In this document: positions 4,095 through 25,099 of the stretch, piece after piece
Layout of the letters: each line of letters opens with the position of its first letter
Position numbering within the stretch: position 1 is the first letter of the stretch
Assembly: GCA_035646975.1 (NCBI GenBank)
Contig: DASROJ010000210.1
Span: 1-37,879, forward strand
Direction of reading: 5' to 3'
From: Patescibacteria group bacterium
GTDB taxonomy: Bacteria > Acidobacteriota > Polarisedimenticolia > JACPZX01 > DASXTC01
Length of the DNA: 37,879 nt
Made by a program: the position numbers and the translations under genes
Notes under the pieces: model-generated
The model's database searches: none
Seen by the model: only the letters and a program-made list of their open reading frames with translations
Told to the model about the DNA's origin: nothing

Positions 4095-6329
4095 TCAGGG
4101 GGCCTGGAGCAGCCTTCTGGCCCGTTCAGCGACCGGGGGGCCGTCGTGGCTCCAGAGAGTGGCGTCGAGCTGCGTGGAGGCAGCCGTAAGTTGTTGACGG
4201 GCCTCGGGGATGCGGTTGAGGCGCTGCAGGCACAGCCCTTTCAGGTAGCTGACCGTTCCGGCCGAGATGCCGGCGCCTGGCGCCAGGCTGAGCCGTTCGA
4301 GCGCTTCGCCGAGCGCCGCCTCGTACATCCCATTTTTCATGAGGAGCACGGCAAGACTCAGAAGCGCTGCGTTTCGCTCGTCGCTTCCCGGATGTCCGAG
4401 CGCTTCTTCCAGCCTCGCCCTGAACGACAGCTCGGCAGCCAGCCGGGACGAAAAGCCACCCGGTGCGTCGGGCGAGAGCATCACCGGCGTGGTGCCCACA
4501 ATGATATTGACCTGTCGCGCGGGCGCACCGGCCCCCTGGAGCGACATGGAGGCTTGCGCTCCTTCGTGCAGTGTCGCCAGCGCCGCGGAAAGATCGCGCG
4601 GTGTGGCGATCGGCCGGCCTCCCAGGGAAACGATCGTCTCGCCGATCCTCACTCCCGCTTTCGCGCCGGAGCCGCCCGGCTGCACCCGGTAGACGGTCGG
4701 GTTCATGACCCGATGCAGCTCGATGGCCTGCAGGCCGATCCAGGGCGCGGTGAGCGTCGCCAGCGTGTCGAACCGCTGAAGGAACTCCTTCGTCTGGGTC
4801 TTGTCGTCCAGCGCGATCGTGGCGCGATCGCGCAACGTCGACAGGGGCGCGGCGCCCCCGACGAGTGTCAGCTCGACGCTTCGGCCGAAGGCTCCTTCGC
4901 CAGGCCGGGCCGCGAGGATCAGGTCGGCGCCCGTGGCCGTGGCAACCGAGGAAAGATACGCGGCGGAGAGATCGGCATCTGCCGATGGGCGTTTCCGCGC
5001 CAGAAGAGCTTCGGGAAGACCCGCGCCGGGGCCCAGGACATTCACGCTCTTGAGCTGCCCCAGCAGGTCGCCCAGCTCCTGCTCCCCAGCCGGAGCCTGG
5101 CCGCCGGGGCCGGCGACCGTCATCCCGACATAGGCAAGCGTCATGCGCAGCTTGCCGGTGACCGCCGCGCGTTGCCCCTTCACGACCTCCGAATGTCCTG
5201 TCCATTGCCCCACCGACGGCACGCGCAGCGTCACGTCGTGCCGGCCGCTGCAGATCCCGTCGAGACGGAGGGGCGTCTTGCCGACGGGCTTGCCGTCGAG
5301 GATCGCCTCGGCCCCCGTGGGCGATGAGTCGAGCATCATTCCGCCGAGGCTGGGGCTGAGCTTTATGGGCTCATAGCGCACCGGCAGCAGATCATTGGGA
5401 TCGATCGTGACGGTGATGCTCAGCGCCTGCTGCTCGTAGCAGTCTTTTTCGATCTTCAGCAGATGCGTGCCCGGAGAGACATGGCCGACCTGCAGCGGCG
5501 CGGAGATATCGGCGAGGCTCACGCCGAGTCGCGAGGCCATCTCAGCGTACTCGGCGCCGGCTGCGCCAAACGTGGCGCCGGCCTCTTTGCCGTCCAGACT
5601 GACCTTCGCGCCGGCAGGCGTCGTCGTCACCAGCAGGTCGCGCGCGTTGGGCACCAGGCGCAGCGACCGCTCGAGACGCGCGCCACCGGCGACGACGACC
5701 TTCTCCTGGATCGGGTCGAATCCTTCCATCTCGATCTTCATGTCGTAGGGACCGGCGGAAGTCTCATGGTCGAAGATCGGGGTTCGGCCAATCGGCGACC
5801 CGTTGATCGACACCATCGCGCCGGGCGGCTCGCTGCTGATGTTGAGCGTGCCGACGATCCGCTTGCGGACCTTGTCGTAGATCGCGACGATTTTCGGCGA
5901 GGTGCGTGTGCGATCGATCGGCCAGGAGACGTCGAACTTGATCAGCGCGTCGTAGTCGGCCTCGGCCTCACTGTTGCGGCCCAGGTTCGCGTAGGTGCGG
6001 GCCCTTCCTTCGTAAGCCTGGCCGACGATCTGGCGGGTCAGCGGCATGGTGGAGGACAGCTTGCCCGAGTTCCAGGCGTCGATCACCTCGGTGAACCGTG
6101 CCAGCGCCTCGGGCAGGTCGAGATCCTCGAGCTTCTGGCTGGCCAGCGCCAGCACCGCGCGGTATTTCTCTATCGCGCCCGTGATGTCTTCTTCCTGCTG
6201 GCCCCAGAGAAGCGCCACGCCGAGGAGTGCCACGCCGAGCAGCGCCGGCCATCTCCAGGGCGCCGTCGTTCTCCGCGCGCCGTGCCTACCAGAACCGGAG
6301 TACTGTCTTGCGCCTGGCGTCATGAACAT
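4095..6329 (-). CDS. Exported TPR + multiple PEGA + PDZ domain protein
   Basis: Signal-like ALLGVALLGVALLW; TPR-like helices; PEGA repeats (LNISSEPPGAMVSING, VTTTPAGAKVSLDG, LDSSPTGAEAILDG); PDZ-like WIGL...VQPGGSGAKAGVRIGETIVSLGG; C-terminal TPR. Start moved to ATG 6329 (6323 possible). Confidence 0.8.
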   Translation of the reverse strand: MFMTPGARQYSGSGRHGARRTTAPWRWPALLGVALLGVALLWGQQEEDITGAIEKYRAVLALASQKLEDLDLPEALARFTEVIDAWNSGKLSSTMPLTRQIVGQAYEGRARTYANLGRNSEAEADYDALIKFDVSWPIDRTRTSPKIVAIYDKVRKRIVGTLNISSEPPGAMVSINGSPIGRTPIFDHETSAGPYDMKIEMEGFDPIQEKVVVAGGARLERSLRLVPNARDLLVTTTPAGAKVSLDGKEAGATFGAAGAEYAEMASRLGVSLADISAPLQVGHVSPGTHLLKIEKDCYEQQALSITVTIDPNDLLPVRYEPIKLSPSLGGMMLDSSPTGAEAILDGKPVGKTPLRLDGICSGRHDVTLRVPSVGQWTGHSEVVKGQRAAVTGKLRMTLAYVGMTVAGPGGQAPAGEQELGDLLGQLKSVNVLGPGAGLPEALLARKRPSADADLSAAYLSSVATATGADLILAARPGEGAFGRSVELTLVGGAAPLSTLRDRATIALDDKTQTKEFLQRFDTLATLTAPWIGLQAIELHRVMNPTVYRVQPGGSGAKAGVRIGETIVSLGGRPIATPRDLSAALATLHEGAQASMSLQGAGAPARQVNIIVGTTPVMLSPDAPGGFSSRLAAELSFRARLEEALGHPGSDERNAALLSLAVLLMKNGMYEAALGEALERLSLAPGAGISAGTVSYLKGLCLQRLNRIPEARQQLTAASTQLDATLWSHDGPPVAERARRLLQAP

Positions 6330-7851
6330 AGATCTCCGCGCGCGGGCCGATCGCCAGCGCCGTGGGTGAGCTGAACTCCGCGGCCGTGGCCGGTTGTGAT
6401 TGAATCTTCTGGACAATCTTTCCATCCACCGTCATCACGATCACCGCCGCGGCGCGCTTGTCCAGCACGAACAGGTCGCCGATGTCATCGGCGGCCACCG
6501 CGACAGGCTCCTGCAGCTCCTGGTCGGCGCCAGCCGGCACCGGGACTTCCTTCGACACCCCCTCGGCCGAGATCTCGAGGACCCTGCGCGATCTGCGATC
6601 GATGGTGTAGAGCCTTCCTCCCGCCCCGACGGCCAGACCCGCCAGCCGGGCGCGTCCCGTGGCGTCGCGGTACAGCAGCTTCAGCTTCGCCGCGTCGCCC
6701 GTGTAGAGCAGGATCTCGTTGCGATCCTCATCGAGAAGCGCCAGATCCTTGAGCCCGATACGCACCGCGGCGACGATCCGCGTCAGCGGCCGCGCGGTTC
6801 CCCCTTCCTGCCGGCTGGGCGAAATGCTCTCCGCACCGGATCGGACCTTGCTCCCCGCGGCGAGGATCTCCACGCCGGCCGGATCCAAGGTCAATGACAC
6901 GCCGCCGGGCATCGGCGCGCCGGTGGACAGCAGCTTGCCTTCATGATCCAGCCGGTAGAGCGCGCCCGTGCGACTGTCGAGCAGGTGCAGCGCGTTGGCG
7001 CCATCCACGGCAAGAGCGGCGTCGCCGCGCGCCGCTTCGGCAGGCAGCGCCGGCGCATACGAGGGATCGTGCGCGAAGGGCGGCTTGCCCGACACACCGG
7101 ACCTGACCTTGAGCGTGTAGATCTGTGTCGTGCGGTCGAGACACCGGGAAGCGAGATGGCTGGTGGGATACTGGTTGCGTACGGTCTGAAACTCTTCGAG
7201 CGCGCGGATCCAGGCGCCCTGGTTCATCCAGGCCAACCCCATCTGGTAATGGGCGTCGTCGGCCGCCGGCCCGTGCGGAAACTCTTCCGCCACGCGCGCG
7301 AACGATCCGATTGACTTGTCGTACCGGGCGGCGAGGTAATCGGCGTAGCCGGCGCCGAACAGCGCCCGGTCGACCTGGGGGCTCGCCGGGTAGATGTTCA
7401 CCACACCCGAGAAGGCGGCATAGGCTTCATCGAGACTGCGCTGCGGGTTGGACGGGTCCAGGGCGATCCATCCGAGCTTGAGCAGGGCACCCGGCGCGTT
7501 GTCCTCGCCCGGATACTTCGTCTTGATCTTCTGGAACAGGTCCCGTGCCTTGACGATCGACGCTTCGGGGATGGTGCCCAGGGCGTCCACCGTGTCGACC
7601 GGGTAGTAGTAGCTGCCGATCCGAAAAAGAGCGTCATCCGCCAGACCGCTGTCGGGATAGGCGGTGTAGACCTGCTCGAAGTCGCGAAGAGCCTGCTCGA
7701 CCTTGCCTTCCTTCAGCAACTGGTCGGCGTTGTCCAGAGTCCGGTGCGCCAGTTCGTCGTCGGCGGGCGAGCCCAGCGTGAGCGCGCAGGCGAGCACGGC
7801 CGGCCCGACCAGGGCTGCGAGCCGAGCACGGCGCCTTCGAGGGATTCTCAT
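6286..7851 (-). CDS. Exported TPR (BamD/YbgF-like repeats) + NHL-type beta-propeller protein
   Basis: Signal peptide; repeated YPDSGLADDALFRIG / YPGEDNAPGALLKLG / YPASPQVDRALFGAG / FPHGPAADDAHYQMG; C-terminal NHL-like repeats (PVAVAADDIGDLFVLD, PTALAIGPRAEIYVHD). ATG 7851 overlaps the kinase TGA. Confidence 0.8.
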   Translation of the reverse strand: MRIPRRRRARLAALVGPAVLACALTLGSPADDELAHRTLDNADQLLKEGKVEQALRDFEQVYTAYPDSGLADDALFRIGSYYYPVDTVDALGTIPEASIVKARDLFQKIKTKYPGEDNAPGALLKLGWIALDPSNPQRSLDEAYAAFSGVVNIYPASPQVDRALFGAGYADYLAARYDKSIGSFARVAEEFPHGPAADDAHYQMGLAWMNQGAWIRALEEFQTVRNQYPTSHLASRCLDRTTQIYTLKVRSGVSGKPPFAHDPSYAPALPAEAARGDAALAVDGANALHLLDSRTGALYRLDHEGKLLSTGAPMPGGVSLTLDPAGVEILAAGSKVRSGAESISPSRQEGGTARPLTRIVAAVRIGLKDLALLDEDRNEILLYTGDAAKLKLLYRDATGRARLAGLAVGAGGRLYTIDRRSRRVLEISAEGVSKEVPVPAGADQELQEPVAVAADDIGDLFVLDKRAAAVIVMTVDGKIVQKIQSQPATAAEFSSPTALAIGPRAEIYVHDARRKTVLRFW

Positions 7852-9887
7852 CACGGACTGAACTTGAACGGCACCCGCGTTCCGCCGCCGGCCGTGATGG
7901 TCACGCTGGTTTCCTTCGTCTCGCCCGTGGGGACGTACACCGCCTTGATGGTGTAGGCGCCCGCCGCCACTCTGAAGTCGTTGATCGGTGGGGGTCCCAG
8001 ATCGTGGCCGTTGAGCGAGATGGTGCAGTTGCTCGGCGAGGCGAGCACGGTGAGCGTTCCCACGCCCGGGAGCCCGGCGTCTGGCGCCAGCACCTTGTCG
8101 GCCTGCACCGTGACGTTGATCGTTCGCTCCACGAACAGCTCCTCGTTTTTCAGCACCAGCTTGTGCGCGCCGCCCGACAGCTTGATCTGCGCTCCCGAGC
8201 GGCCCAGCTCCTTGCCGTTTTCGAAGATGGAGACCGGGTAGGGCGCCGAGATCTTCACGAACCCCACCGGCACCTTTGCCAGCGTGAGGCTGACTGGTCC
8301 ACCCGGTTTTTCGAGCTTCGTCTCCAGATCCTTGTACCCCTCGAGCCTGAGCGACATGGCGTGCGTTCCGCAGGCCGGCACGGGAATGTCCGCCGGCGTG
8401 ACCTTGCCGGTGTCCTTGCCGTCGAGAAGAACTCTCGCGCCGGCCGGCTGCGTGGTCACCGGCGCCGCCACGATCTTCGGAGTCTTCAGCGGGATCGAGT
8501 GGATCGCGCCGTCGGCGTCCTGCCCGGCGCGCCACGACACCTTCTCGATGAAGCAGTCGTTCTCGGCGACGATGGTGTGCGTCGCGGTCTCCTTTTTCGG
8601 GACATGCATGACGCCGTTGGGCGTCTCCACGTCATCGATGTAGATTTTGCCGCCTGGCGGGCTGGTCTGCCAGGTGATTGCGATCGCGTCGGAGCCTCCG
8701 GGTGTGACGGGAAGGGCTCCCCCGCCGGCTCCGGCGGCAAGGATTCCCGCGGTTCGATAAAACGGCTGCGCTCCCGCCGAATCCGACCGCCCCCATCGAT
8801 CGTCGAGGGTGCCTGCCGCCGGGACGAGCAATACCAGCGCGAGCGCGCCCAGAAGCATGAACCCGACGCGAAGCGGATGCGTCCGGGTGGCCGGCTTCGG
8901 GGCCGCCACGGTCCGCGCGGCGGCCGGGGCGGGCCCAAGCCTGACCGTTCTTGCGGGCGCCATCTCCGGTTTGACCGAGGGCGCGGCGGCCGGGACGGGA
9001 CGGGCCACGACTCTCATCGGGCGTGTGACCCCAACCCCTTCGGCGAGCAGCTCCTCCCCTTCACCCTGCAACGCCGCGGCCAGCGCCGCGGCCAGCGCAG
9101 TTCCCGTCTGGTAGCGTCGGTCCGGATCCTTGGCCAGCGCCCTGACGAGAACCTGCGCGACGTACTCGGGGATCTCCTTGTTGCTCACCATCGGCGCGGG
9201 TGGCTGCTCGTTGAGAATCCTGTAGATGATGGTGGTCACGGTGTCGCCGGGGAATGGCCGCTCGCCGGTCAGCAGCTCGTAGAGCACCGCGGCGAGCGAA
9301 AAAAGATCGCTGCGGCCATCCAGGGTCCTGCCCATCACCTGCTCGGGCGACATGTAGTTGGGCGTCCCGATCAGGATCCCTTCCTGTGTCAGATTGGTTG
9401 TCGGATTCTTCGCGAGACCGAAGTCGGTGATCTTGAGCCGCCCGTTCTTCAGCAGCATCAGGTTGGCCGGCTTGATGTCCCGGTGGACGATCCGCTGCTG
9501 GTGCGCGTAGTCGAGCGCCTCGCAGGCTTGCACGACCAGCCCGATGACCTTGGACACCGGCAGCAGTTTGTCCTTCCGCGTGTACCGCTCGAGGGTCTCT
9601 CCCTCGATGTACTCCATCGCGATGAACCATGTCCCGTCATGTTCGCCGACATCGAAGATGGTGACGATGCCGGGATGCTGCAGCCGGCCGGCGGCCTGCG
9701 CCTCCCGCGTGAACCGCTGCCTTATCTCCTCGGCTTCCAGATCGGGAAGGACGTGCAGGGCATGGATGGTCTTGATGGCGACCTGGCGATCGATGCGCGG
9801 GTCGTGGGCCAGATAGACAACTCCCATGGCCCCATGGCCGATTTCGCTGATGATCTCGTACCGGCCTATGTTCCCAGGGGTCGTCAT
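7851..9887 (-). CDS. Transmembrane Hanks-type Ser/Thr protein kinase with extracytoplasmic PEGA domains
   Basis: GHGAMGVV, VAIK, HRDIKPAN, DFG and GTPNYMSPEQ are all intact; Pro/Ala linker; one TM (GFMLLGALALVLLVP); PEGA repeats (TTQPAGARVLLDG, LASPSNCTISLNG). Confidence 0.92.
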   Translation of the reverse strand: MTTPGNIGRYEIISEIGHGAMGVVYLAHDPRIDRQVAIKTIHALHVLPDLEAEEIRQRFTREAQAAGRLQHPGIVTIFDVGEHDGTWFIAMEYIEGETLERYTRKDKLLPVSKVIGLVVQACEALDYAHQQRIVHRDIKPANLMLLKNGRLKITDFGLAKNPTTNLTQEGILIGTPNYMSPEQVMGRTLDGRSDLFSLAAVLYELLTGERPFPGDTVTTIIYRILNEQPPAPMVSNKEIPEYVAQVLVRALAKDPDRRYQTGTALAAALAAALQGEGEELLAEGVGVTRPMRVVARPVPAAAPSVKPEMAPARTVRLGPAPAAARTVAAPKPATRTHPLRVGFMLLGALALVLLVPAAGTLDDRWGRSDSAGAQPFYRTAGILAAGAGGGALPVTPGGSDAIAITWQTSPPGGKIYIDDVETPNGVMHVPKKETATHTIVAENDCFIEKVSWRAGQDADGAIHSIPLKTPKIVAAPVTTQPAGARVLLDGKDTGKVTPADIPVPACGTHAMSLRLEGYKDLETKLEKPGGPVSLTLAKVPVGFVKISAPYPVSIFENGKELGRSGAQIKLSGGAHKLVLKNEELFVERTINVTVQADKVLAPDAGLPGVGTLTVLASPSNCTISLNGHDLGPPPINDFRVAAGAYTIKAVYVPTGETKETSVTITAGGGTRVPFKFSP

Positions 9888-9941
9888 CTGTTTTGCTCGG
9901 CCCAGCAAAGCTTAATGACCGCCCCCGGCCGAGTCAATCGT

Positions 9942-10655
9942 TCAGGCTCCTTTGCGCAGTCTTTCGCCAAGACCCGGTGGAGCCTCCCGGCCCTCCAGGG
10001 CCCGGACGGTCCTGTCGATATCGTATCCAAATCGCCGGAATACGACCTTCACTTCGGCGTCGGCCTGGATCACCGCATAACCGGTCTGCGGGTTGCCATC
10101 CCGGGGCCGGCCGAGACTGGCGACATTGAGGAAGTGTCTGCCATCGATCGAACGGTGGAAGCTGCGGGGCGAGCACCCGATGGCGATGACATCGGCCCTG
10201 GCGGCCTCGCCATACTCGATGAACCGCGCTTCGGGCATCTCCTGGGTCAGGCAGTCATGCATGTCGATCGGGCCGGCATGATACACCGCCACGCGACGTT
10301 GACCGCCGTGGCTGCTCGCGCCGAACGGCAGATCGGCCAGCCAGCGCTTGTCGAGCAGGTCCATCCGCCGCCGGGTCCAGTCAAACGACGCTTCGGCCAG
10401 CGCCTGCTCCGCCGGGTCCGATTCACGGCCACCGCTGTCGTCGCCGTCCCAGCCGATGCCTTCGTCAAAGCCGCCGCGAGCGCCCTGGACGTTTCTGTCG
10501 CGCAGAAAGGCGACGCATTCGTCGGGGTATGGGCCGAAGCCGACCACGTCTCCCGTGTGGGCGATCCAGTCGTATCCTTCTTTCTCAGCCTCCGCCCACG
10601 AGGCTTCCAGGGCGGGGAGGTTGCCGCAGATGGCGCCAAAAACGATTGTCTTCAT
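9942..10655 (-). CDS. Calcineurin-like metallophosphoesterase-fold protein (YfcE/MJ0936-like) with degenerate metal-binding motifs
   Basis: The scaffold matches the family (GNLPALEA, GDVVGFGPYPDE, LNVASLGRPRDGNP), but DxH reads AxC, GNxD reads GGFD and GHxH reads GCSP. ATG 10655 follows GAGG. Confidence 0.8.
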   Translation of the reverse strand: MKTIVFGAICGNLPALEASWAEAEKEGYDWIAHTGDVVGFGPYPDECVAFLRDRNVQGARGGFDEGIGWDGDDSGGRESDPAEQALAEASFDWTRRRMDLLDKRWLADLPFGASSHGGQRRVAVYHAGPIDMHDCLTQEMPEARFIEYGEAARADVIAIGCSPRSFHRSIDGRHFLNVASLGRPRDGNPQTGYAVIQADAEVKVVFRRFGYDIDRTVRALEGREAPPGLGERLRKGA

Positions 10656-10668
10656 GACCCTCAACCTA

Positions 10669-12996
10669 TCAAAGCCCGCGCGTGGCGTTCAAGTCGGGTG
10701 ATCTTCCCACGGCAAACGATACCAGGCCGATCGTGATGGCGAACATCAGCGAGATTGCGGAAACCCATGCCCCGGTGCGAAACCACCGGGGTCGATACGT
10801 CAGCAGCACTTCCGCGTCGCCCGCCGGGACATCCACCGCCATGTACAGATAGTTGGCGCGCCGCACCGGAGCCGGCTTTCCGTTGACGCTCGCCTCCCAG
10901 CCGGCATCCCAGGCATCGCCCACCACAAGGTAACCCGGCGCCCCGGCGCCGCGCAGAACCACGGCGAGCGCGCCCGGGATGTTGCGCTCCAGAGCGATGG
11001 CCGGCGGGGCCGCCGGAGCATCTCCCCCGGATTCCGGAGCCGGCGTCGACTCGATCACCGCCTGCCGGTCCAGGTCGATGCGGCCGGCCGCCAGGCTTTC
11101 CAGAAGACCATCGCGAGACTCCGCGGGGGAAGAAGCGGCGTGCGAGACGAATGACAGACGCGGCCGCGCGCGATCGTTGACGAAGACGCGGCCATCGGGC
11201 CCGTCGTACGCCAGCTGGAGCCCGTCTCCGGAGACCACCGCCTGGGGCGGCGTCACCACGTAGCGCATCCCCAGGAGATCGAGCAACGGCCTCGAGCCGG
11301 CCGGGATCTCGCCGGTCTGGTGGACGTGATCCACCCGGGCCATATCGAGGATGCGCCGGTAGTCGCGCGACTCCGTGGCCTCCAGCCCGTCCGACACGGG
11401 GCCTCCTTCGATCGATGACAGCCAGTAGGGCATCTGTGTTTCGGCGCGCAGGACCGGCCCTACCGTCAGCAGCCGCCCGCCCCTCACCATGTCGGCAGAT
11501 GCGTCCTTCCGAAGAAAGTCGGTCAGACGTGTCGGTGGAAACATCGCCTCGGCGCCGGCGTGGGGGTTTCTGCCCGACGCGAACTGCAGCATGTCCACAC
11601 AGGTGATGGCCGCGATACCGAACGTGTAGATGGCCCGCCCCGACGGACGCAGCAGGACGAGGGTGACGAGCAGCCCGGTGCCTCCCACGAAGAACGCCGC
11701 AAGACGCGCGGCGTTGGGGTCGCGTGTGCCGTATCCCATCGCAACGGCAATCAGGAGAAAGGCGCACAGCAACGTGACGCCGATCAGTGAACCACGTTGA
11801 CGCCACTGCATTCCGGCGCTCGGCTTCGCGTTCTGACCGACTGCTTCGAGTGCTTCGAGGCCTGCCAGGCCAAGAGCCGCCAGGGTCGCCAGGCAGAACG
11901 GCAGCAGCAGGCCCGGCGCCCACCGTGTCCCGGGCGGACCGGATGCCGAAACCGCCGAGACCACCGCGATCGCGACGAAGAAACGGGTCCGGCGCCACCA
12001 GCACAGCGATACCAACGCGAGCAGCAACGCAGCAGCGCCGGCGTACCCCGCCGGGGTCCGCCCGACATGGCCGGGCAGCAGCAGGCTGAGCGTCATGTGA
12101 GATGCGCCCGATGCGCTCGATGCCACCGACGCAGCCCGAGTCGACGCCTCGCCGGCCGCTTCCCGCTCCAGGGACGGCAGCAGCTGAACCGCCGCCATCG
12201 CACAGGCAAGAGCCATCGCGCCGAGGTACATCCCGACCGCCAGACGCGGCCGCGGGGCCTCGCGCAGGCTCCACAGGAAATAGAGCGCCGACAGCCCCAG
12301 GATCTGCAGCGTCGTGCCGCGGTCCCCGCCAAGGTATTGCGCGGCCCCGGCGAACACCAGAAGGAGAAACGGCCCGGACGACTGGCGGGCCGCAAGCGAC
12401 CGGGTCGCATGCATCACCAGCGGCAGCAGCAAGGCAGCGTTGGTGTGCGGAGAACCGAGCCACCCGGTCATGAAGCCGCATAGCGCGAACGACACCGACC
12501 CGGTCACGCAGGATGCCGTGCGGCATCCGAGCCCGGCGAGGAAGATGGCCATGAAGCCACCCGCCAGCACGACCTTCATCAGCATCGCCGCGGTGAACAC
12601 GCGCATCGAGGGGAAGATCCATGCAGGCCAGTGGAGCGGAAAGAAGACGGCCGACTGCGCGTTGGCCACGAACGGGGTCCCGCAGCCCGAATAGGGATTC
12701 CAGAGCGGGATCCATCCACCTTCGAGGCTTCGCGCCGTGTAGAGCTGCCACGGCCAGGCTCGCAGGAGCAGAGCATCCATCGATGCATCCCCCCCGCTGC
12801 CGGGCGCCCCATGCGCTTCCGTCTCGGCGGCATAGGCTTTCCACGGCCACTGTCCGTACTGCGCGCCGGCCGGCGCGATCAGAGCCCCGCGGGTGAGCAC
12901 CGGAGCGTGCAGGGCGACCACCAGGGCGGCCACCACGGCCACCGAGATGAGGACAGGGCCCGCATGAAACAGACGTCCGTCGCGAGAAGCCTTCAC
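10669..12996 (-). CDS. YfhO-family polytopic membrane protein (putative GT-C glycosyltransferase)
   Basis: PLWNPYSGCGTPFVANAQSAVFFP motif, many TM helices, C-terminal AGWEASVNG...RANYLYMAVDVPAG...YRP plus a final TM. GTG 12996 overlaps the aroB stop (GTGA). Confidence 0.8.
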   Translation of the reverse strand: MKASRDGRLFHAGPVLISVAVVAALVVALHAPVLTRGALIAPAGAQYGQWPWKAYAAETEAHGAPGSGGDASMDALLLRAWPWQLYTARSLEGGWIPLWNPYSGCGTPFVANAQSAVFFPLHWPAWIFPSMRVFTAAMLMKVVLAGGFMAIFLAGLGCRTASCVTGSVSFALCGFMTGWLGSPHTNAALLLPLVMHATRSLAARQSSGPFLLLVFAGAAQYLGGDRGTTLQILGLSALYFLWSLREAPRPRLAVGMYLGAMALACAMAAVQLLPSLEREAAGEASTRAASVASSASGASHMTLSLLLPGHVGRTPAGYAGAAALLLALVSLCWWRRTRFFVAIAVVSAVSASGPPGTRWAPGLLLPFCLATLAALGLAGLEALEAVGQNAKPSAGMQWRQRGSLIGVTLLCAFLLIAVAMGYGTRDPNAARLAAFFVGGTGLLVTLVLLRPSGRAIYTFGIAAITCVDMLQFASGRNPHAGAEAMFPPTRLTDFLRKDASADMVRGGRLLTVGPVLRAETQMPYWLSSIEGGPVSDGLEATESRDYRRILDMARVDHVHQTGEIPAGSRPLLDLLGMRYVVTPPQAVVSGDGLQLAYDGPDGRVFVNDRARPRLSFVSHAASSPAESRDGLLESLAAGRIDLDRQAVIESTPAPESGGDAPAAPPAIALERNIPGALAVVLRGAGAPGYLVVGDAWDAGWEASVNGKPAPVRRANYLYMAVDVPAGDAEVLLTYRPRWFRTGAWVSAISLMFAITIGLVSFAVGRSPDLNATRGL

Positions 12997-14144
12997 CGTG
13001 GCGGCGCCGTGTCCAGCATCCCGGCAAGCACCTCCGCCGCCAGGGCATCCTCGAGCAGGATGCCGTAGCCGGACGGACCACGCGCCATCACGCCCAGCGC
13101 CGACGGCAGGACGTAGGCGATCCTTCCGTCCCGGGTCTTCTTGTCGCGACGCGCCGCCTCGAGGATCGACCAGGGCCTCATCGCCGGCCGATCGGCGCTC
13201 AGACGCACCGGCAGCCCGAGCTTCTCCAGCGTCTGCTCGATCGCTTCGGCGGCGGCTCCGGACAGCACCCCGAGCCGCTGCGCCATTCGTGTCTCCGCCA
13301 CCATGCCGATCGACACCGCCTCGCCATGGGTCAGCTCGTATCCCGACAGTGTCTCGATCGCGTGGCCGATGGTGTGCCCCAGGTTGAGGATCTTGCGCAG
13401 GTCCCCTTCCTTCTCGTCGGCCGCCACCACCTCGGCCTTGATCTCGCACGAGCGCGCGATCACCTCGGTGAGCAGCCCCGGCTCGCGCCTCAGCAGGGCC
13501 GGGGACTCGCCGGAGATCCGGTCGAACAGCGCGGCGTCGCGGATCACGGCGGTCTTGACGATCTCGGCCAGCCCCGAGCGGTACTCCCGCTCCGGCAGCG
13601 TGAACAGGAAGTCGGTGTCGATGAACACGGCCGAGGGCTGGTGAAAGGCCCCGATCAGGTTCTTGCCCCTGGCGTGGTCCACTCCCGTCTTGCCGCCCAC
13701 CGACGCGTCCACCATCGCCAGCAGGCTGGTCGGAACCTGCACGCACCTGATTCCACGCAGGTAGGTGGCGGCCACGAAGCCCGCCAGATCGGTCGTCACG
13801 CCGCCTCCCACCGCCACGATCGCCGCGTCACGACCGCATCCGGCCTCGATCATGGCGTCTTCCACGATTTCCTTGGTGGCGCGGGTCTTGTTCGCCTCTC
13901 CGGCGGCAAAGACGATCGTGCCCACCGACAGGCCCGCGTCGACCAGCAGATCGTGGAGGGGCCGGACGTGCAGCGCCGCCACGTTGGAATCGGCCACCAG
14001 GGCGTAGCGCGCGGCGAGATGCCGCTCGATCAGCCAGGTCGCGAGACGGCGGGAGGCGCCCGGACCCACCATCACCGGGTAGGGTGGCGCGGTCCGGACT
14101 TCGAGGGTGATGATGGGGGCGGCCGAAGACTCCGGCGGGGTCAT
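12993..14144 (-). CDS. aroB: 3-dehydroquinate synthase
   Basis: GEANKT, GGGVTTDLAGF, PTSLLAMVDASVGGKTG, GKNLIGAF, NLGHTIGHAIE, HGEAV. Confidence 0.95.
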   Translation of the reverse strand: MTPPESSAAPIITLEVRTAPPYPVMVGPGASRRLATWLIERHLAARYALVADSNVAALHVRPLHDLLVDAGLSVGTIVFAAGEANKTRATKEIVEDAMIEAGCGRDAAIVAVGGGVTTDLAGFVAATYLRGIRCVQVPTSLLAMVDASVGGKTGVDHARGKNLIGAFHQPSAVFIDTDFLFTLPEREYRSGLAEIVKTAVIRDAALFDRISGESPALLRREPGLLTEVIARSCEIKAEVVAADEKEGDLRKILNLGHTIGHAIETLSGYELTHGEAVSIGMVAETRMAQRLGVLSGAAAEAIEQTLEKLGLPVRLSADRPAMRPWSILEAARRDKKTRDGRIAYVLPSALGVMARGPSGYGILLEDALAAEVLAGMLDTAPPR

Positions 14145-14169: not shown

Positions 14170-14673
14170 TTACTCCGGAGACGCGAGCTTGCCGAGGTCG
14201 TCGAGGTAGCCGCGCACCAGGGATCGGTGCTTCTCCTCGTCCAGCGACGTCTTGATGAGACGGGACGTCGCGGCGAGGACCAGGTCGACCGATTGCTCCC
14301 TGATCTCGCGCACCGCCGCTCTTTTCTGCCGCTCGAGGTCTTCGGAGAACTGCTTTGCCTTGTCCTCGGCCTCACGATGGGCCCGCGCGAGGATGTCGGC
14401 ACGGACCTGCTCGGCATCCCGCTGGGCCTTCTCGATGATCGCCGCCATCTCATGACGCGCCTTGGCCAGCATCTCGCGATGCTGCGCCATCAGCTTTTCC
14501 GCCTCCTCCCTGGCCTGCCGGGCCTGCTCGAGCGACTCGCGTATCGTCTTCTCGCGCTCGTCCAGCAGGGCGAGCAGGGGCTTCCAGGCGACGGCCCGCA
14601 GAATCCCCAGCAGGACGAGGAAGGTGAACACCGTCCAGATGATGAGACCGGGATCGATCTCTACCAGTTTCAT
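14170..14673 (-). CDS. atpF: ATP synthase F0 subunit b
   Basis: IDPGLIIWTVFTFLVLLGILRAVAWKPLLALLDERE followed by a long charged coiled coil. Confidence 0.93.
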   Translation of the reverse strand: MKLVEIDPGLIIWTVFTFLVLLGILRAVAWKPLLALLDEREKTIRESLEQARQAREEAEKLMAQHREMLAKARHEMAAIIEKAQRDAEQVRADILARAHREAEDKAKQFSEDLERQKRAAVREIREQSVDLVLAATSRLIKTSLDEEKHRSLVRGYLDDLGKLASPE

Positions 14674-14683
14674 GCGGACTCAC

Positions 14684-14911
14684 CTACCTCAGGAACACGA
14701 TCAGGATGCAGACGACTTCGGCGATCAGCGTGACGCCTTCGATGAGCGCCGCGCCGATGATCATGTTGGTTCCGATGGGGCCGGCCGCCTGGGGCTGCCT
14801 GGCAATCCCCTCGAGGGCCGAGGCGGACAGACGGCCGATGCCGTAGCCGCCGCCGATGACCGCGATCCCCGCCCCGATGGCGGCCGCGACGTAGGGTAGA
14901 TGCTGATCCAT
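14684..14911 (-). CDS. atpE: ATP synthase F0 subunit c
   Basis: GxGxGxG-like inner helix, ARQP loop, ALIEG carrier Glu. Confidence 0.95.
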   Translation of the reverse strand: MDQHLPYVAAAIGAGIAVIGGGYGIGRLSASALEGIARQPQAAGPIGTNMIIGAALIEGVTLIAEVVCILIVFLR

Positions 14912-14947
14912 TTGACGACTCCTCCTTGGGAAAATGTCATGAACCGT

Positions 14948-15796
14948 TCAGTGCGAAGGGTGTACCGAAAACCCGATGAACAGGGATGTCAACATCGCGA
15001 AAATGTAGGCCTGAAGAAAGGCCACGAACAGCTCCAGCATGATGATGCCCAGAGCCAGCGGCACCGCCACGAAGCCCACCATCAGGCTCTTGAAGATGAA
15101 GATCATCCCCAGGAACGACAGGATGGCGACGTGGCCAGCCGTCATGTTGGCGAAAAGACGGATACAGAGCGCGAACGGCTTGACGAACATCCCCAGCACC
15201 TCGACCACGATCATGATCGGCAGGACGAAGATGGGAAGGCCGTGCGGCACCAGGTTCTTCCAGTGCTTGAAGAAACCGTTCTCCCTGATTCCCTCGAGCT
15301 GGATCATCAGGAAGGAGAGAATCGCCAGACCCGCCGTCACGTTGAGGTTGCCGGTGGCCGTCGAGCCGAGCGGCACCAGCCCGAGCAGGTTGCAGACCAG
15401 GATGAAAAAGAAAAGCGTCAGGATGTACGGAGCCAGTTTTCTTCCATGGTGCTCGCCGATGTTCTTGATGCAGATCTCGTCGCGCACGAACACGACCAGC
15501 ATCTCGAGCAGGTTCATGACCCCCCGGGGCACGAGCTTCCGCCCACGCATCACCACGGCGAACAGCAGGATGAGTATCGTCGAGGCGACCCACATCATCA
15601 CGACATGCCGCGTGATGGACAGATCGAGCCCGCCGAGGTGGATCTGCGGCAGGTGGACCTGGGTGAATCCCAGATCGAGGGTGTCCCCGTTCGTGATGTG
15701 GTGCATGATCGTGGCGCCGATGTCGTCGGAGTGCTCGGCCGCGTGCTCGGCTGCCCCAGCTGCCTCCGCCGCGTGCTCCGTCGCCTGCTGTATCAC
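14948..15796 (-). CDS. atpB: ATP synthase F0 subunit a
   Basis: ITRHVVMMW, NLLGLVP, TATGNLNVT, IRLFANMTAGH (essential Arg), FLQAYIF. Confidence 0.95.
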   Translation of the reverse strand: MIQQATEHAAEAAGAAEHAAEHSDDIGATIMHHITNGDTLDLGFTQVHLPQIHLGGLDLSITRHVVMMWVASTILILLFAVVMRGRKLVPRGVMNLLEMLVVFVRDEICIKNIGEHHGRKLAPYILTLFFFILVCNLLGLVPLGSTATGNLNVTAGLAILSFLMIQLEGIRENGFFKHWKNLVPHGLPIFVLPIMIVVEVLGMFVKPFALCIRLFANMTAGHVAILSFLGMIFIFKSLMVGFVAVPLALGIIMLELFVAFLQAYIFAMLTSLFIGFSVHPSH

Positions 15797-16185
15797 GTCA
15801 GTTTCCTCAGATATGCCACTTCGAGCGCCTGGAACACCAGCGTGCCCACCACCAGCCCGGCGCCCACACCTGCCGGGTCGACGACCTTCAGCGCCACCGC
15901 AGCCATCACCAGGGCCAGATAAGCTACCATGCGTGCCATCATCAGGCCAGCGAAGGCTCGCGCCATGCTCGTGGTGGCCTGGGCCTGCAAGGTCGCATCA
16001 CCCCGCGCCCGGGATTTGATCCGTGTGAGCACCGCGACCGCGAGGGCGGCAAACGATCCCGCCACCGCCGTTCCCGCGGCCACGCCGGCGACCAGGCCGG
16101 AATGCCCGGGCATGGCCGCAGCCGTGATGGCGGCCACCAGCGCGGTCACACCGACCACGAACAGCGGGAAAGGCAGCTTTGTCAT
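15793..16185 (-). CDS. atpI: AtpI-like membrane protein
   Basis: 130 aa with about 4 hydrophobic helices, lying between atpZ and atpB with a GTGA overlap. Sequence match is weak, so the call is mainly positional. Confidence 0.6.
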   Translation of the reverse strand: MTKLPFPLFVVGVTALVAAITAAAMPGHSGLVAGVAAGTAVAGSFAALAVAVLTRIKSRARGDATLQAQATTSMARAFAGLMMARMVAYLALVMAAVALKVVDPAGVGAGLVVGTLVFQALEVAYLRKLT

Positions 16186-16195
16186 TCGTCCGCCG

Positions 16196-16432
16196 TCATT
16201 CGTCACCATTCCCCGGTGGGCGCCGCAGCACGACCGCAAAGAAATTGTAGAATCCCAGCACCAGCCCCAGCATTGTTCCGGCGATGGTCAGCCACGGCTT
16301 GGTGCCGAATCTGCCATCGGCCCAGTAGCCGCCGCCGACCCCAATCAGCAAAGAGGCCGCGAACATCGAGCCCAGCCCCAGATAGGGCCCGGCCCGGCGG
16401 AGGATTTCGCTGCGTCCGTTCTTGTCGGCCAT
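16196..16432 (-). CDS. atpZ: AtpZ/AtpI family (ATPase gene 1) protein
   Basis: GYWADGRFGTKPWLTIAGTMLGLVLGFYNF family motif; first gene of the F0 cluster. Confidence 0.85.
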   Translation of the reverse strand: MADKNGRSEILRRAGPYLGLGSMFAASLLIGVGGGYWADGRFGTKPWLTIAGTMLGLVLGFYNFFAVVLRRPPGNGDE

Positions 16433-17941
16433 TCAGCCCGACGACGATGCCGCCATTGCCATCGAATACGAGAATGTCGCCAGTTTCAGGATTCGCTCGG
16501 GCATCAGCCCGATCAGCAGCGTCGCCGCCGCCGCGATCGCCAGCGCCGCCGTCAGGGCGGGCGAGGTCGCGTACGGTTCGTCGGTCAGCGGCTCGCGCAG
16601 GTACATGCAGACCACCACCCGGAAATAGTAGTAAAGCGAGATCGCGCTGTTGATGACCATGAGCACGGCGAGCCAGGCGTAGTGCCCCTTGATCGCGGCG
16701 CCGAACAGGTACCACTTGCCCATGAAACCCGCCAGCGGGGGGATGCCCGCCAGCGACAGAAGGAACAGCAGCATCACGAAAGCGGCCATCGGCGCGCGTT
16801 TCGCCAGCCCCGAGAAGTCGACGATCAGGTCGCCCACGAGGTTTGCGCGTCTCATCATGATCACCATCGCGAAGGCGCCGATGTTCATGAAGGTATAGAC
16901 CAGCAGGTATATGGCCACCGCCTTGACGCCGAAGTCGCCAGTCTCCCCCGGCATGCCGGCCACCAGGACGCCGACCAGCGTGTAGCCGGCGTGCGCGATG
17001 CTCGAGTAGGCGAGCATCCTCTTGATGTTGTCCTGCAGGATCGCGGTGATATTGCCCAGCGTCATGCTGGCCGCCGCCAGCAGCGCGATGAGCGGCGCCC
17101 AGTACTGGTACAGCGCGGGGAATCCCGACATCAGGACCCGGAGTCCCACGATGAAGGCCGCTGCCTTCGACGCGGTGGAGATGAACGCGGTGACCGCCGT
17201 GGGAGCCCCTTCGTAGGCGTCCGGGATGTACATGTGGAACGGCACCGCGGCCACCTTGAACCCGAGCGCCACCGTGATGAGGATCAGCCCGAGAATCGTC
17301 AGCTCGATGCCGGGCGCGCCGGGAACCGCCACCGTGGCGATCTTCGCCAGCTGGATCGAACCGGTGCTGCCGTATACCAGCGACGAGCCGTACACGAACA
17401 TCGCGGTGGAAAACCCGCCGAGGATGAAATACTTCAGCGCCGCCTCGTTAGACTTGCGGTTCTCCTTGAGATAACCGACCAGGACGTAAATCGAAAGCGC
17501 CATGGTCTCGAGCGAGATGAAAATCATCAGCAGGCTCAGGGCCGTGGCCATGAACATCATCGAGGCGGTGGCGATCATGATCAGGGCGTAATACTCGCCC
17601 GACTGCATTCTCTCGATGTCCATGTAGTTGATCGAGATCATGATGGTGAGCACCGCGCCGATCAGGAAGATCAGCTTGAAGAAGAAGCTCAGCGGGTCCA
17701 CCGCGACGTCGCCGGAGAAAACCGGCGCGGCGGCCACCCCGTCGAGCACCCGGGCGTTGTTGAACACGCTGGGAATCACCAGCACCGTGCCGACCAGCGA
17801 GAGCCAGGCGATGAGCCGGCGGTCTTCCTTCGGCAGGATGGCGGTGACGGCCAGGATGATGAAGGCGAAGAAGTAGAGAAGCAGCTCCGGCAGGATCGGT
17901 CTGCAATCCACAAGGTACTTCGCCGCGTCGAACGCGCTCAC
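16433..17941 (-). CDS. nuoN: NADH-quinone oxidoreductase subunit N
   Basis: LPE N-terminus, GEYYAL, ISLETMAL, EAALKYF, FKVAAVPFHMYIPDAYEGAP, IKRMLAYSSIAHAGY. GTG 17941 overlaps the nuoM stop. Confidence 0.95.
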   Translation of the reverse strand: MSAFDAAKYLVDCRPILPELLLYFFAFIILAVTAILPKEDRRLIAWLSLVGTVLVIPSVFNNARVLDGVAAAPVFSGDVAVDPLSFFFKLIFLIGAVLTIMISINYMDIERMQSGEYYALIMIATASMMFMATALSLLMIFISLETMALSIYVLVGYLKENRKSNEAALKYFILGGFSTAMFVYGSSLVYGSTGSIQLAKIATVAVPGAPGIELTILGLILITVALGFKVAAVPFHMYIPDAYEGAPTAVTAFISTASKAAAFIVGLRVLMSGFPALYQYWAPLIALLAAASMTLGNITAILQDNIKRMLAYSSIAHAGYTLVGVLVAGMPGETGDFGVKAVAIYLLVYTFMNIGAFAMVIMMRRANLVGDLIVDFSGLAKRAPMAAFVMLLFLLSLAGIPPLAGFMGKWYLFGAAIKGHYAWLAVLMVINSAISLYYYFRVVVCMYLREPLTDEPYATSPALTAALAIAAAATLLIGLMPERILKLATFSYSMAMAASSSG

Positions 17942-19506
17942 TTGCGCAGCTCCGCGTAGCCGCGCGAGGCCGGGCCCAGCTGCTCGACGAGATGGGCCAC
18001 CGGCTTGTCGAGGATGTCGAAGAACGGCTTCGGGTACAGGCCGATCCAGAAGCAGCAGGCCACCAGCGGCGCCAGGTAGAGGACCTCGCGCGCCGTGCAG
18101 TCCTTGAGCTTCTGGTTCTCGGGATTGTCGAGCGGCCCGAACATCGTGCGCTGGTACAGCCACAGCATGTAGGCCGCCCCCAGGACGATGCCCGTCACAC
18201 CGCACACCGCCCAGAACCGGCCGCCCACCGACATGCCGAACGGATGCAGCGCGACATCATGCGGTATCTGGAAGGCGCCGGCGAGGATGGTGAACTCGCC
18301 GATGAAGCCGTTGAGCACCGGCAGCCCGATCGAGGACATGGTCACGATGAGGAACATCGTGGCGAATACGGGCATCTGCTTCGACAGCCCGCCGAACTCC
18401 GAGATCAGTCTCGTGTGCCGGCGCTCGTAGACGATGCCGACGATGAGGAACAGCGCCCCGGTGGAAAGCCCGTGATTGAGCATCTGCAGGATGCCGCCGT
18501 TGAGCCCGTTCACGTTGAGCGCGAACACCCCCAGCATGCAGAACCCCAGATGGCTGACCGACGAATAGGCGACCAGCTTCTTCCAGTCCCGCTGCACCAT
18601 CGCCACCAGCGCTCCGTAGACGATGCCCACCACCGCGAGACCGAGGATGTACGGGGCGTAGATCCTGGAGGCCTCGGGAAGCATCGGCAGATTGAACCTC
18701 ACGAAGCCGTACGTCCCCATCTTGAGTAGCACGCCGGCGAGGATGACGGAGCCGGCCGTGGGGGCCTCGGTATGCGCGTCGGGCAGCCAGGTGTGAAACG
18801 GGAACATCGGCACCTTGATGGCGAACCCGATGAAGAAGGCCCAGAAGACCCACTTGGAGAGCGCGAGGAAGGCGGGGTCGGCGCCCAGCGTGACAAGCTG
18901 CGTGTAGTCGAACGTGCTGACGCCGGTCTTGCTGCCGTAATAGAAATAGACGGCGAGAATTCCCAGCAGCATCAGAACCGAGCCGAACAGCGTGTACAGG
19001 AAGAACTTGATCGCCGCGTACAGCTTGTTGCTGCCCCCCCAGATGCCGATCAGGAAGTACATCGGCACCAGCATGACCTCCCAGAAGACATAGAAGAGGA
19101 AGAAATCCAGCGACATGAACGTGCCGAGCATCCCGGTCTGCAGCAGGAGCAGGAAGATGTAGTACTCCTTCACCCTGTCGGTGATGGCGGTCCAGGACGA
19201 CAGCATCGCGACGACCCCGAGCAGCGTGGTCAGCAGCACGAACAGCATCGAGATGCCGTCCACGCCGAAGATGTACTGCGCCCCGATGGAAGGGATCCAG
19301 GAGTGCCGCTCGAGCGTCGTCGGGTCGAATCCCGCCAGGCTCGTGTCCCACTGGAAGAACAGCGGTAGCGAGAGCAGGAAGTCGACGCCGGCCACCGCGG
19401 TGGCGAACCAGGCGATCCCCTTCTTCGCGTTTTTCGGAAAGAAGAGAATGAGCAGCGCGCCCAACAGGGGCACGTAAGCGATGAGTGAAAGGAGACCTCG
19501 AAACAT
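17938..19506 (-). CDS. nuoM: NADH-quinone oxidoreductase subunit M
   Basis: GVDGIS, FYVFWEVMLVPMYF, IKVPMFPFHTWLPDAHTEAP, LLKMGTYG, KKLVAYSSVSHLG, GFIGEF. Confidence 0.95.
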   Translation of the reverse strand: MFRGLLSLIAYVPLLGALLILFFPKNAKKGIAWFATAVAGVDFLLSLPLFFQWDTSLAGFDPTTLERHSWIPSIGAQYIFGVDGISMLFVLLTTLLGVVAMLSSWTAITDRVKEYYIFLLLLQTGMLGTFMSLDFFLFYVFWEVMLVPMYFLIGIWGGSNKLYAAIKFFLYTLFGSVLMLLGILAVYFYYGSKTGVSTFDYTQLVTLGADPAFLALSKWVFWAFFIGFAIKVPMFPFHTWLPDAHTEAPTAGSVILAGVLLKMGTYGFVRFNLPMLPEASRIYAPYILGLAVVGIVYGALVAMVQRDWKKLVAYSSVSHLGFCMLGVFALNVNGLNGGILQMLNHGLSTGALFLIVGIVYERRHTRLISEFGGLSKQMPVFATMFLIVTMSSIGLPVLNGFIGEFTILAGAFQIPHDVALHPFGMSVGGRFWAVCGVTGIVLGAAYMLWLYQRTMFGPLDNPENQKLKDCTAREVLYLAPLVACCFWIGLYPKPFFDILDKPVAHLVEQLGPASRGYAELRK

Positions 19507-19517
19507 TCAATCGCTCC

Positions 19518-21584
<2,067 letters not shown>

Positions 21585-21591
21585 GCTCCGC

Positions 21592-21894
21592 CTAGCCTTT
21601 CATGATGTTCATGTCGTCGACGTTGATGGAGTCCTTGTTGCGGTACAGCGAGATGATGATCGCCAGACCCACGGCCACCTCACCCGCCGCCACGACGATC
21701 GTGAAGATGCTGAAGACCTGTCCGGCCAGATCGCCGAGCTTCTGCGAAAAGGCGATGAAATTGATGTTGGCCGAGTTCAGCATCAGCTCGATGCCCATCA
21801 TCACGATGATGGCGTTGCGGCGGGTCAGCACGCCGATCAGCCCTATCGTGAACAGGGCGAGACTGAACACAAGGATGTGAGAAGTCGGGATCAT
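21592..21894 (-). CDS. nuoK: NADH-quinone oxidoreductase subunit K
   Basis: RRNAIIVMMGIELMLNSANINF, VAAGEVAVGLA. Confidence 0.95.
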   Translation of the reverse strand: MIPTSHILVFSLALFTIGLIGVLTRRNAIIVMMGIELMLNSANINFIAFSQKLGDLAGQVFSIFTIVVAAGEVAVGLAIIISLYRNKDSINVDDMNIMKG

Positions 21895-22397
21895 ACTTTC
21901 TTCCTTGCCAGGACGACCGCGCCGATCATCGCCACCAGCAGCAGCACCGAGGCGATTTCGAACGGCAGCATGTATCGCTGGTAGAGCAGCAGCCCCACGG
22001 TTTCGATGTTGCCCCCGCCTGACGCCAGCGGCTGGATGCCGTCGCCCGTCTCCGGCCCCTTCGCCGCGGCGAAAAAAGAGATGAGGCTGGCGGCCAGCAG
22101 GCCGGCCAGCAGCAGCGAGCCGGCCACGTGCCTCACCGGCGGCCGCAGCTGGCGTGCCTCCAGCGGCACCAGCATGATCACGAAGAGGAACAGCACCATG
22201 ATGCCGCCCGCGTACACCAGCACCTGCACCGCCGCGAGGAACTCGGCCGACAGGATGACGTAGATCCCCGCCACGCAGAAGAAGGTCAGCACGAGAAAAA
22301 GCGCCGCATGGACGGCGCTGCGCCGCGTGATGACCATCACGGCGGACACCACCGCCAGCGAAGCCAGCACGTAGAAAACCATCGCGCCTGGAGCCAA
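21891..22397 (-). CDS. nuoJ: NADH-quinone oxidoreductase subunit J
   Basis: SAVHAALFL, AEFLAAVQVLVYAGGIMVLFLFVIML, LPFEIASVLLLVAMIGA. Start is TTG 22397 or ATG 22382. Confidence 0.93.
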   Translation of the reverse strand: MAPGAMVFYVLASLAVVSAVMVITRRSAVHAALFLVLTFFCVAGIYVILSAEFLAAVQVLVYAGGIMVLFLFVIMLVPLEARQLRPPVRHVAGSLLLAGLLAASLISFFAAAKGPETGDGIQPLASGGGNIETVGLLLYQRYMLPFEIASVLLLVAMIGAVVLARKKV

Positions 22398-22412
22398 CCC
22401 CCGTCCCCCCCT

Positions 22413-22898: not shown

Positions 22899-22908
22899 AA
22901 TGGTCGGA

Positions 22909-25073: not shown

Positions 25074-25099
25074 CGGCGTCCGTTCCTTCGGCTCGCGGC

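Follow-up and report, generated by a model that had tools for sequence, protein, structure and literature searches.

The closest described relatives of the protein considered here belong to a group of metallophosphoesterases (MPEs) with a helical cap after motif III. It includes SapH (Spr1479) of Streptococcus pneumoniae and the Sphaerobacter thermophilus protein 3rqz, which share a common fold. According to its PDB entry, SapH is an active asymmetric diadenosine tetraphosphate (Ap4A) hydrolase and phosphodiesterase with the metal centre present. Here we describe a gene of this type at 9942-10655 on the minus strand of a 37,879-nucleotide stretch of DNA (the window), which is one whole contig (DASROJ010000210.1) of a metagenome-assembled genome (MAG). 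Unlike SapH, the encoded protein, further called the window MPE, has only two of the seven ligands left in its binuclear metal centre, with cysteines in place of two of the five lost ones, and its gene is adjacent to that of a Hanks-type Ser/Thr kinase. We are not aware of any kinase linkage of SapH. From the sequence evidence we suggest, as the somewhat probable reading, that its product is a pseudo-phosphoesterase which is retained for something other than catalysis, possibly together with the kinase. We are more confident in the part of this reading that the enzyme is dead but selected, and less confident in the partnership with the kinase.

Degenerate metal sites are already present in the capped subfamily. 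The Pyrococcus hypothetical proteins PF1291 and PH1004 (1nnw and 2gju) match the window MPE at TM-scores of 0.83-0.85 and sequence E-values of about 1e-6, and both carry D8N, H10A, D36N, and N62K. The 1nnw sequence alignment stops before motifs IV and V. 2gju additionally has H126Y, H161S, and H163R, which makes all seven ligands lost, compared with five in the window MPE. Hence, stable and crystallisable ligand-free members of the capped subfamily already exist. However, unlike the window MPE, the Pyrococcus proteins are archaeal, have no known kinase context and no Cys replacements, and are only about 20% identical to it.

Non-catalytic phosphatase folds that bind a kinase or a phospho-substrate and regulate signalling are found in eukaryotes, where the kinase-binding pseudophosphatases TAB1 and STYX are examples. 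Their binding is experimentally proven, but their folds (PP2C and dual-specificity protein tyrosine phosphatase, respectively) differ from that of the window MPE. The MPE fold itself serves without phosphatase activity in the retromer subunit Vps29, which is a rigid protein-binding scaffold (PMC3101248). Vps29 structures are the next matches to the window MPE after the capped MPEs, although at TM-scores of only 0.43-0.50; the protein is eukaryotic, has no helical cap, and its partners Vps35, TBC1D5, and VARP are unrelated to kinases. The scaffold role of Vps29 is experimental, while that of the window MPE is proposed from its sequence. In the RNA lariat debranching enzyme Dbr1, Cys-x-His replaces Asp-x-His, and the Cys is essential (PMC5113202), which makes thiolate ligation compatible with the MPE fold. 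In Dbr1 the motif I Asp alone is replaced and the other ligands are kept, whereas the window MPE has Cys for two His and non-ligands (A, G, and P) at three further positions.

The homologue search over 5.8 billion proteins yielded 93 homologues, the nearest being 65% identical to the window MPE. The window MPE remains below the Pfam gathering thresholds of both Metallophos_2 (PF12850; 23.1 vs 27 bits) and Metallophos (PF00149; 21.1 vs 21.5 bits). Its homology to the MPE superfamily is still clear, as the 65%-identity orthologues carry both domains. Intact orthologues also pass the YfcE family phosphodiesterase model TIGR00040 with its cut-off of 56.25 bits (P0002 with 64.5 and P0054 with 67.4 bits), whereas P0022, an orthologue with three ligands lost, scores 43.1 bits and the window MPE does not match at all. 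The bacterial PPP-type Ser/Thr phosphatase model PrpA/PrpB (NF008516, cut-off 326 bits), whose family is marked by GDxHG, GDxVDRG, and GNHE, does not match the window MPE, and the orthologues reach only 16-32 bits with it.

The AlphaFold2 (AF2) model of the window MPE, built on the homologue alignment, has a pLDDT of 95.8 and a pTM of 0.92. It demonstrates the four-layer alpha/beta/beta/alpha sandwich of MPEs with the helical cap between motifs III and IV (residues 62-107, helices 62-68, 81-97, and 100-107). Foldseek assigns it a probability of 1.00 to many MPE structures at TM-scores up to 0.85. The top matches are 3rqz, SapH (3qfm/3qfn), 1nnw, and 2gju at 0.77-0.85. For SapH and 3rqz the Foldseek E-values are 2e-17 to 6e-15 with TM-scores of 0.77-0.83, and 3rqz is also matched by sequence (E 5e-13). 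Judged by this model, the window MPE is a capped metallophosphoesterase of the SapH/3rqz type; we take it to be cytoplasmic.

Motifs I to V of the window MPE are G7-A8-I9-C10-G11-N12, G35-D36, R60-G61-G62-F63-D64, Y125-H126-A127-G128-P129, and G160-C161-S162-P163. In the alignment to the 93 homologues its seven ligand positions are A8, C10, D36, G62, H126, C161, and P163, while the five nearest orthologues and most of the family have D-H-D-N-H-H-H in these columns. Only D36 and H126 are kept. An earlier reading made from the sequence only had listed the same motifs, with five of seven ligands lost and two replaced by Cys, and both the translation and the alignment agree with it. Its family consensus of SDIHGN, RGN(H/Y)D, and GHTH needs correction, however, as the own clade of the window MPE has GDIHGN, RGNFD, and GH(x)H. 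The motif IV His is conserved in all aligned homologues, eroded copies included, with the single exception of genome G025 (family f11), where it is Asn.

The window comes from a MAG that is 80% complete and consists of 402 contigs, which brings up the possibility of an assembly or sequencing artefact or of a chimeric contig. We consider it practically negligible. The five ligand replacements (codons GCC, TGC, GGC, TGC, and CCC) require at least eight nucleotide changes, which cannot be read errors. The protein identical to the window MPE is found on three other metagenome contigs from different samples, with the DNA 99.8-99.9% identical, a coding sequence (CDS) free of differences, and flanks that differ at just 5 and 1 positions. 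The synteny also agrees with that of the relatives. Hence, with the identical protein on three contigs from other samples, the window MPE is neither an error nor a chimera. The GGTTGAGGG stretch is located directly upstream of its ATG at 10655. Three further open reading frames (ORFs) overlap the region, one of 910 aa on the plus strand (8004-10736) and two that are shorter. None of them matches a Pfam family, and we regard them as artefacts of the high GC content.

In the superfamily scheme, as it is stated for Dbr1, the bridging Asp contacts both metals. Metal 1 (M1) is further bound by Cys/Asp-x-His and the second GHxH His, and metal 2 (M2) by the Asn, the His of motif IV, and the first GHxH His (PMC5113202). 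Following this scheme, the M1 site of the window MPE carries D8A, H10C, and H163P and is left with D36 and Cys for His. The M2 site carries N62G and is left with D36, H126, and C161 in place of His. Single Ala changes at the equivalent residues of Dbr1 abolish the activity (PMC5113202). As the M1 ligands D8, H10, and H163 together with N62 are gone, and the equivalent Dbr1 variants are inactive, we strongly infer that canonical two-metal catalysis is lost in the window MPE. The sequence also argues against metal-dependent hydrolysis of Ap4A or phosphodiesters.

The rest of the protein evolves differently from the metal site. In the site-class test the window MPE is compared with the consensus of its five nearest canonical orthologues over columns ranked by conservation in 74 other homologues. 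It is changed in 10 of the 82 conserved non-ligand columns versus 35 of the 82 variable columns (Fisher p = 1.9e-5). The ligand columns are changed in five cases out of seven, far above the conserved non-ligand columns (Fisher p = 0.0012). Most of the changes in conserved columns are themselves conservative (L>F, F>Y, I>V, G>A, and V>L). Each of the five nearest orthologues has 5-9 of 82 conserved, 26-34 of 82 variable, and none of the 7 ligand columns changed. Thus, the ligand columns appear to have evolved like free sites, and the fold appears to be constrained as in the working enzymes. Pairwise Nei-Gojobori (NG86) dN/dS values are 0.19-0.40 for the pairs with the window MPE and 0.16-0.38 for the pairs of intact orthologues; three-taxon arithmetic on these values puts the window branch at about 0.24. 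The frame runs through 237 codons and the stop with no internal stops, and the protein has no indels and exactly the length of its orthologues.

Ligand loss, combined with purifying selection elsewhere in the protein, supports a pseudoenzyme rather than a pseudogene. The sequence-only reading, which had seen an intact frame and conserved flanking fold residues and hence no decayed pseudogene, is in line with the site-class test, dN/dS, and the confidence of the AF2 model. It had also named what would speak against it, namely canonical ligands in the orthologues and neutral evolution of this copy: the nearest orthologues do keep the canonical ligands, but the window copy is not evolving neutrally.

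The binuclear centre of the window MPE is dismantled, with M1 wholly lost and M2 down to D36, H126, and C161 with N62G. We suggest that two-metal phosphoester hydrolysis would be gone with it, and that the protein would be kept for binding of a phospho-ligand or a protein partner. The likeliest partner, as suggested by gene order, may be the PEGA-domain Ser/Thr kinase. The MPE fold survives well without catalysis, as is evidenced by Vps29 (PMC3101248) and the Pyrococcus proteins.

The loss of the metal site is not limited to the window. In the tree of 96 homologues the window MPE is found within a well-supported 47-member clade, which is a family-level group of Candidatus Polarisedimenticolia, a class of the Acidobacteriota. 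The orthologue of the same-family genome G006 is identical to a protein with the NCBI label Candidatus Polarisedimenticolia. Altered ligand sets occur in 25 of the 47 members and in at least seven separate lineages. These are, besides the window, the D8V/D8Y forms, the H163R form, a four-member H163D group, an 11-member subclade with the stable D-H-N-N-H-(N/G/D)-L set, G005 with P-H-G-P-H-G-D, and G004 and P0078 with R/S-L/Q-D-R-H-S-x. The 41-member sister clade has only N62D or N62H and may still bind metal. Among the six genomes of the same family that have the gene, G001 is canonical, G002 has one change, G006 three, and the window, G005, and G004 five each. In the second family, f11, the orthologues are eroded in three of three cases. 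Thus, the same metal site was independently eroded in at least seven lineages of the family-level clade and in a second family. The window MPE appears to be the extreme intact-length end of this family trend, in which catalysis would be dispensable in the clade and the protein retained. The replacements in the other eroded orthologues are L, Q, G, N, D, S, T, R, and P, with no Cys among them; the Cys pair is unique to the window genome.

There is also a second MPE paralogue family (G000:C393:351-1040 (-), which is locus L002, and L020-L023), 27-28% identical to the window MPE. Its motifs GG(I/V)YSN, GD, (Q/R)GNY(E/D), H, and CTHTG are conserved in five genomes. D8G and H10Y are stable in it across genera, and it looks like another long-lived altered metal site.

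The genes around the window MPE are listed in Table 1. The kinase gene follows that of the MPE on the same strand after about 54 nt and is recognised by Pfam with 176.9 bits for Pkinase and with PEGA domains. It retains VAIK, HRD, and DFG and is, by these motifs, catalytically intact; the kinases adjoining the eroded MPEs likewise keep VAIK, HRD, DFG, and the SPE loop. The G002 PEGA kinase (L025 ~8679, G002:C11) aligns in two pieces (query 7-201 and 202-685) one base apart, owing to a frameshift or to an error in the sequence of that assembly. No terminator-like site is found among the YfhO-like gene, the MPE, and the kinase, and MPE and kinase are probably co-transcribed. The two proteins encoded downstream of the kinase at 6286-7698 and 4095-6425 look like an envelope signalling module.

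Table 1. Coordinates of the window MPE, its ligand positions, and the neighbouring genes in the window.
Feature	Coordinates	Strand	Basis and remarks
Degenerate capped metallophosphoesterase CDS, 237 aa	9942..10655	(-)	Stop codon 9942-9944, ATG 10655-10653; translation, Pfam, AF2, Foldseek
Motif I remnant A8-I9-C10, codons GCC ATC TGC; clade has D-I-H	10626..10634	(-)	Alignment
D36 (GAC), bridging Asp of motif II, retained	10548..10550	(-)	Alignment
G62 (GGC); clade has the metal-binding Asn of RGNFD	10470..10472	(-)	Alignment
H126 (CAT), motif IV His, retained	10278..10280	(-)	Alignment
Motif V remnant C161-S162-P163 (TGC TCG CCC); clade has H-x-H	10167..10175	(-)	Alignment
Membrane Hanks-type Ser/Thr kinase with extracytoplasmic PEGA domains, 685 aa	7851..9908, likely ATG 9887	(-)	Pfam, alignment
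YfhO-like polytopic membrane protein, directly upstream	10669..12990 (start approximate)	(-)	Pfam, synteny; stop 13 nt before the MPE ATG
aroB (3-dehydroquinate synthase), in the conserved block	12993..14144	(-)	Pfam, synteny
TPR / YfiO(BamD)-like protein downstream of the kinase, conserved with the kinase class-wide	6286..7698	(-)	Pfam, synteny
PEGA-PDZ-TPR protein downstream of the kinase, conserved with the kinase class-wide	4095-6425	(-)	Pfam, synteny
nuoD-H-(I)-J-(K)-L-M-N, then ATP synthase F0 a and b subunits, then aroB	14170-25172	(-)	Pfam

The gene order nuoN-atpB-atpF-aroB-(x)-MPE-kinase-TPR/BamD-like-PEGA/PDZ, where (x) is a variable slot, is conserved across families f1, f7, and f14. 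In f11, which was checked around the gene only, aroB-MPE-kinase is kept. All examined genomes of f1 and f11, and most of the class, have the MPE next to the kinase, whereas in the relatives outside the class the MPE is not kinase-linked. Since the block is frozen class-wide together with the unrelated nuo, atp, and aroB genes, the adjacency is weak evidence of a functional pair. The proposal of the sequence-only reading that the protein acts with the adjacent kinase thus gains from the adjacency kept in all four families and loses from the frozen block and the missing link outside the class, and remains weakly supported.

The host genome encodes 28 Hanks kinases. PP2C_2 was not found in the host MAG, while 24 of 26 relatives have one, and its absence is probably due to the incompleteness of the MAG. 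The window MPE as the only phosphatase available to the kinases was set aside, as PP2C is present in these relatives.

The slot (x) upstream of the MPE differs between the families. In f7 and in two of three f14 genomes it contains the genes of a small HisKA protein and of a response regulator of 271 aa, which immediately precede that of the MPE. In f1 the slot is either empty or taken by the YfhO-like gene, and in f11 it is empty; all eroded MPE copies belong to f1 and f11. The 13 genomes with the HisKA/response-regulator pair keep all MPE ligands except at position 62. The count of erosion is thus 0 of 13 with the pair versus 7-8 of 9 without it, which corresponds to only one or two phylogenetically independent contrasts, and for this reason the relation between the loss of the pair and the erosion of the ligands stays a lead rather than a result.

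At the f7 and f14 loci (such as L038:3376-4863 and L029:~5000-9231) the HisKA-only protein has 218-239 aa, and the 271-aa regulator consists of a REC domain with a weak PDE8A_N-like match. An additional hybrid or PAS histidine kinase is sometimes present there. In f1 the YfhO-like gene of G005 is a 219-aa remnant (L027:8101-8712), and G004 (L028) has none; these are the two genomes whose MPE lacks the cap and the C-terminal helices.

Several points weigh against the pseudo-phosphoesterase kept for a non-catalytic role. Binding of a phospho-ligand or a partner is something that we infer, and the link to the kinase comes from gene order inside the frozen block. The confidence of the AF2 model is driven by the alignment and is no proof that the window sequence folds. 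At a dS of about 1, which is near saturation, the NG86 dN/dS values average the time before and after the ligand loss. With the nearest relative only 65% identical, the A-C-D-G-H-C-P set need not be old or stable in the window lineage. D36 and H126 survive and C161 is a possible ligand, which makes some metal binding conceivable. Finally, the terminal branch of the window MPE is about twice the median (0.38 vs 0.16), a moderate acceleration, and the MPEs of G004 and G005 have lost the cap and the C-terminus, which fits a slow death of the gene in the family.

The latter two points lead to the alternative that the gene is on its way out, with catalysis dispensable in the family, no function left, and the frame merely unbroken so far. 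The gradient within the family, from intact G001 through one loss in G002, three in G006, and five in the window to the five losses with internal deletion and C-terminal truncation in G005 and G004, agrees with such a decay, as does the restriction of eroded copies to the loci where the upstream HisKA/response-regulator pair is missing. However, the conserved columns of the window MPE are changed more than three times less than the variable ones and about six times less than the ligand columns, which is unexpected under neutrality of the whole gene. Its dN/dS is not above that of the intact orthologues, and its length is kept to the residue. The compared genomes belong to different genera with saturated dS, and an unselected ORF would not last that long; the 11-member subclade, moreover, stably keeps one altered ligand set. 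We thus regard decay as unlikely.

Another possibility is that the site is not lost but remodelled, with D36, H126, and C161, and perhaps C10, forming a single-metal (Zn, Fe, or Mn) or redox-sensitive thiol site for one-metal catalysis or sensing. Two of the three lost His became Cys, each by two nucleotide steps (CAC to TGC). Cys is rare in the protein (4 of 237 residues), and two Cys among five replacements would occur by chance with a probability of about 0.004 by a post-hoc estimate. Three of the four M2 positions are still potential ligands, and Dbr1 is the precedent for a required Cys ligand (PMC5113202). However, in the scheme of the same work C10 and C161 are at the positions that bind different metals (PMC5113202). 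Judging from the canonical ligand scheme, the two Cys are unlikely to share one site. With a side chain shorter than that of His, they would probably come together in such a site or in a disulfide only if the backbone moved. The residues for positioning the nucleophile, N62 and the entire M1 site, have been lost, and none of the other eroded orthologues has turned to Cys. The sequence-only reading had suggested that the Cys swaps would suit a place downstream of respiratory genes; canonical orthologues occupy the same place behind nuo and atp, so the neighbourhood gives no redox argument, and we rejected the redox reading from gene position. Taken together, a remodelled site seems to us quite unlikely.

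A bolder version would combine both ideas. In it the window MPE would be a bacterial kinase-binding pseudophosphatase that binds to the PEGA-domain Hanks kinase in its phosphorylated form, or to the substrate of this kinase, with Cys10 and Cys161 forming a metal or redox switch together with D36 and H126. We find it very unlikely as a whole. If it were true, docking of an MPE with a Cys switch would couple envelope Ser/Thr signalling to the metal or redox state of the cell.

Last but not least, we return to the proposed pseudo-phosphoesterase and its retention for a task other than catalysis. Pseudoenzymes have been mapped thoroughly in the signalling of eukaryotes, but scarcely in bacteria. 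We know of no MPE-fold pseudoenzyme paired with a Hanks-type kinase, and the literature search found no bacterial MPE-fold pseudophosphatase with such a pairing. A non-catalytic MPE-fold protein is already a known kind; here it would be bacterial, capped, and kinase-adjacent, in a clade of recurrent active-site erosion. The practical weight is limited, as the hosts are uncultured soil or sediment Acidobacteriota and the functional statements are drawn from sequence throughout. We note, however, that one gene neighbourhood holds a natural series: it begins with an intact enzyme, continues with proteins that lack one, three, and five ligands, and ends with truncated ones. This series could show what purpose retains a phosphoesterase fold that no longer catalyses, and whether losing the upstream two-component pair frees the active site.

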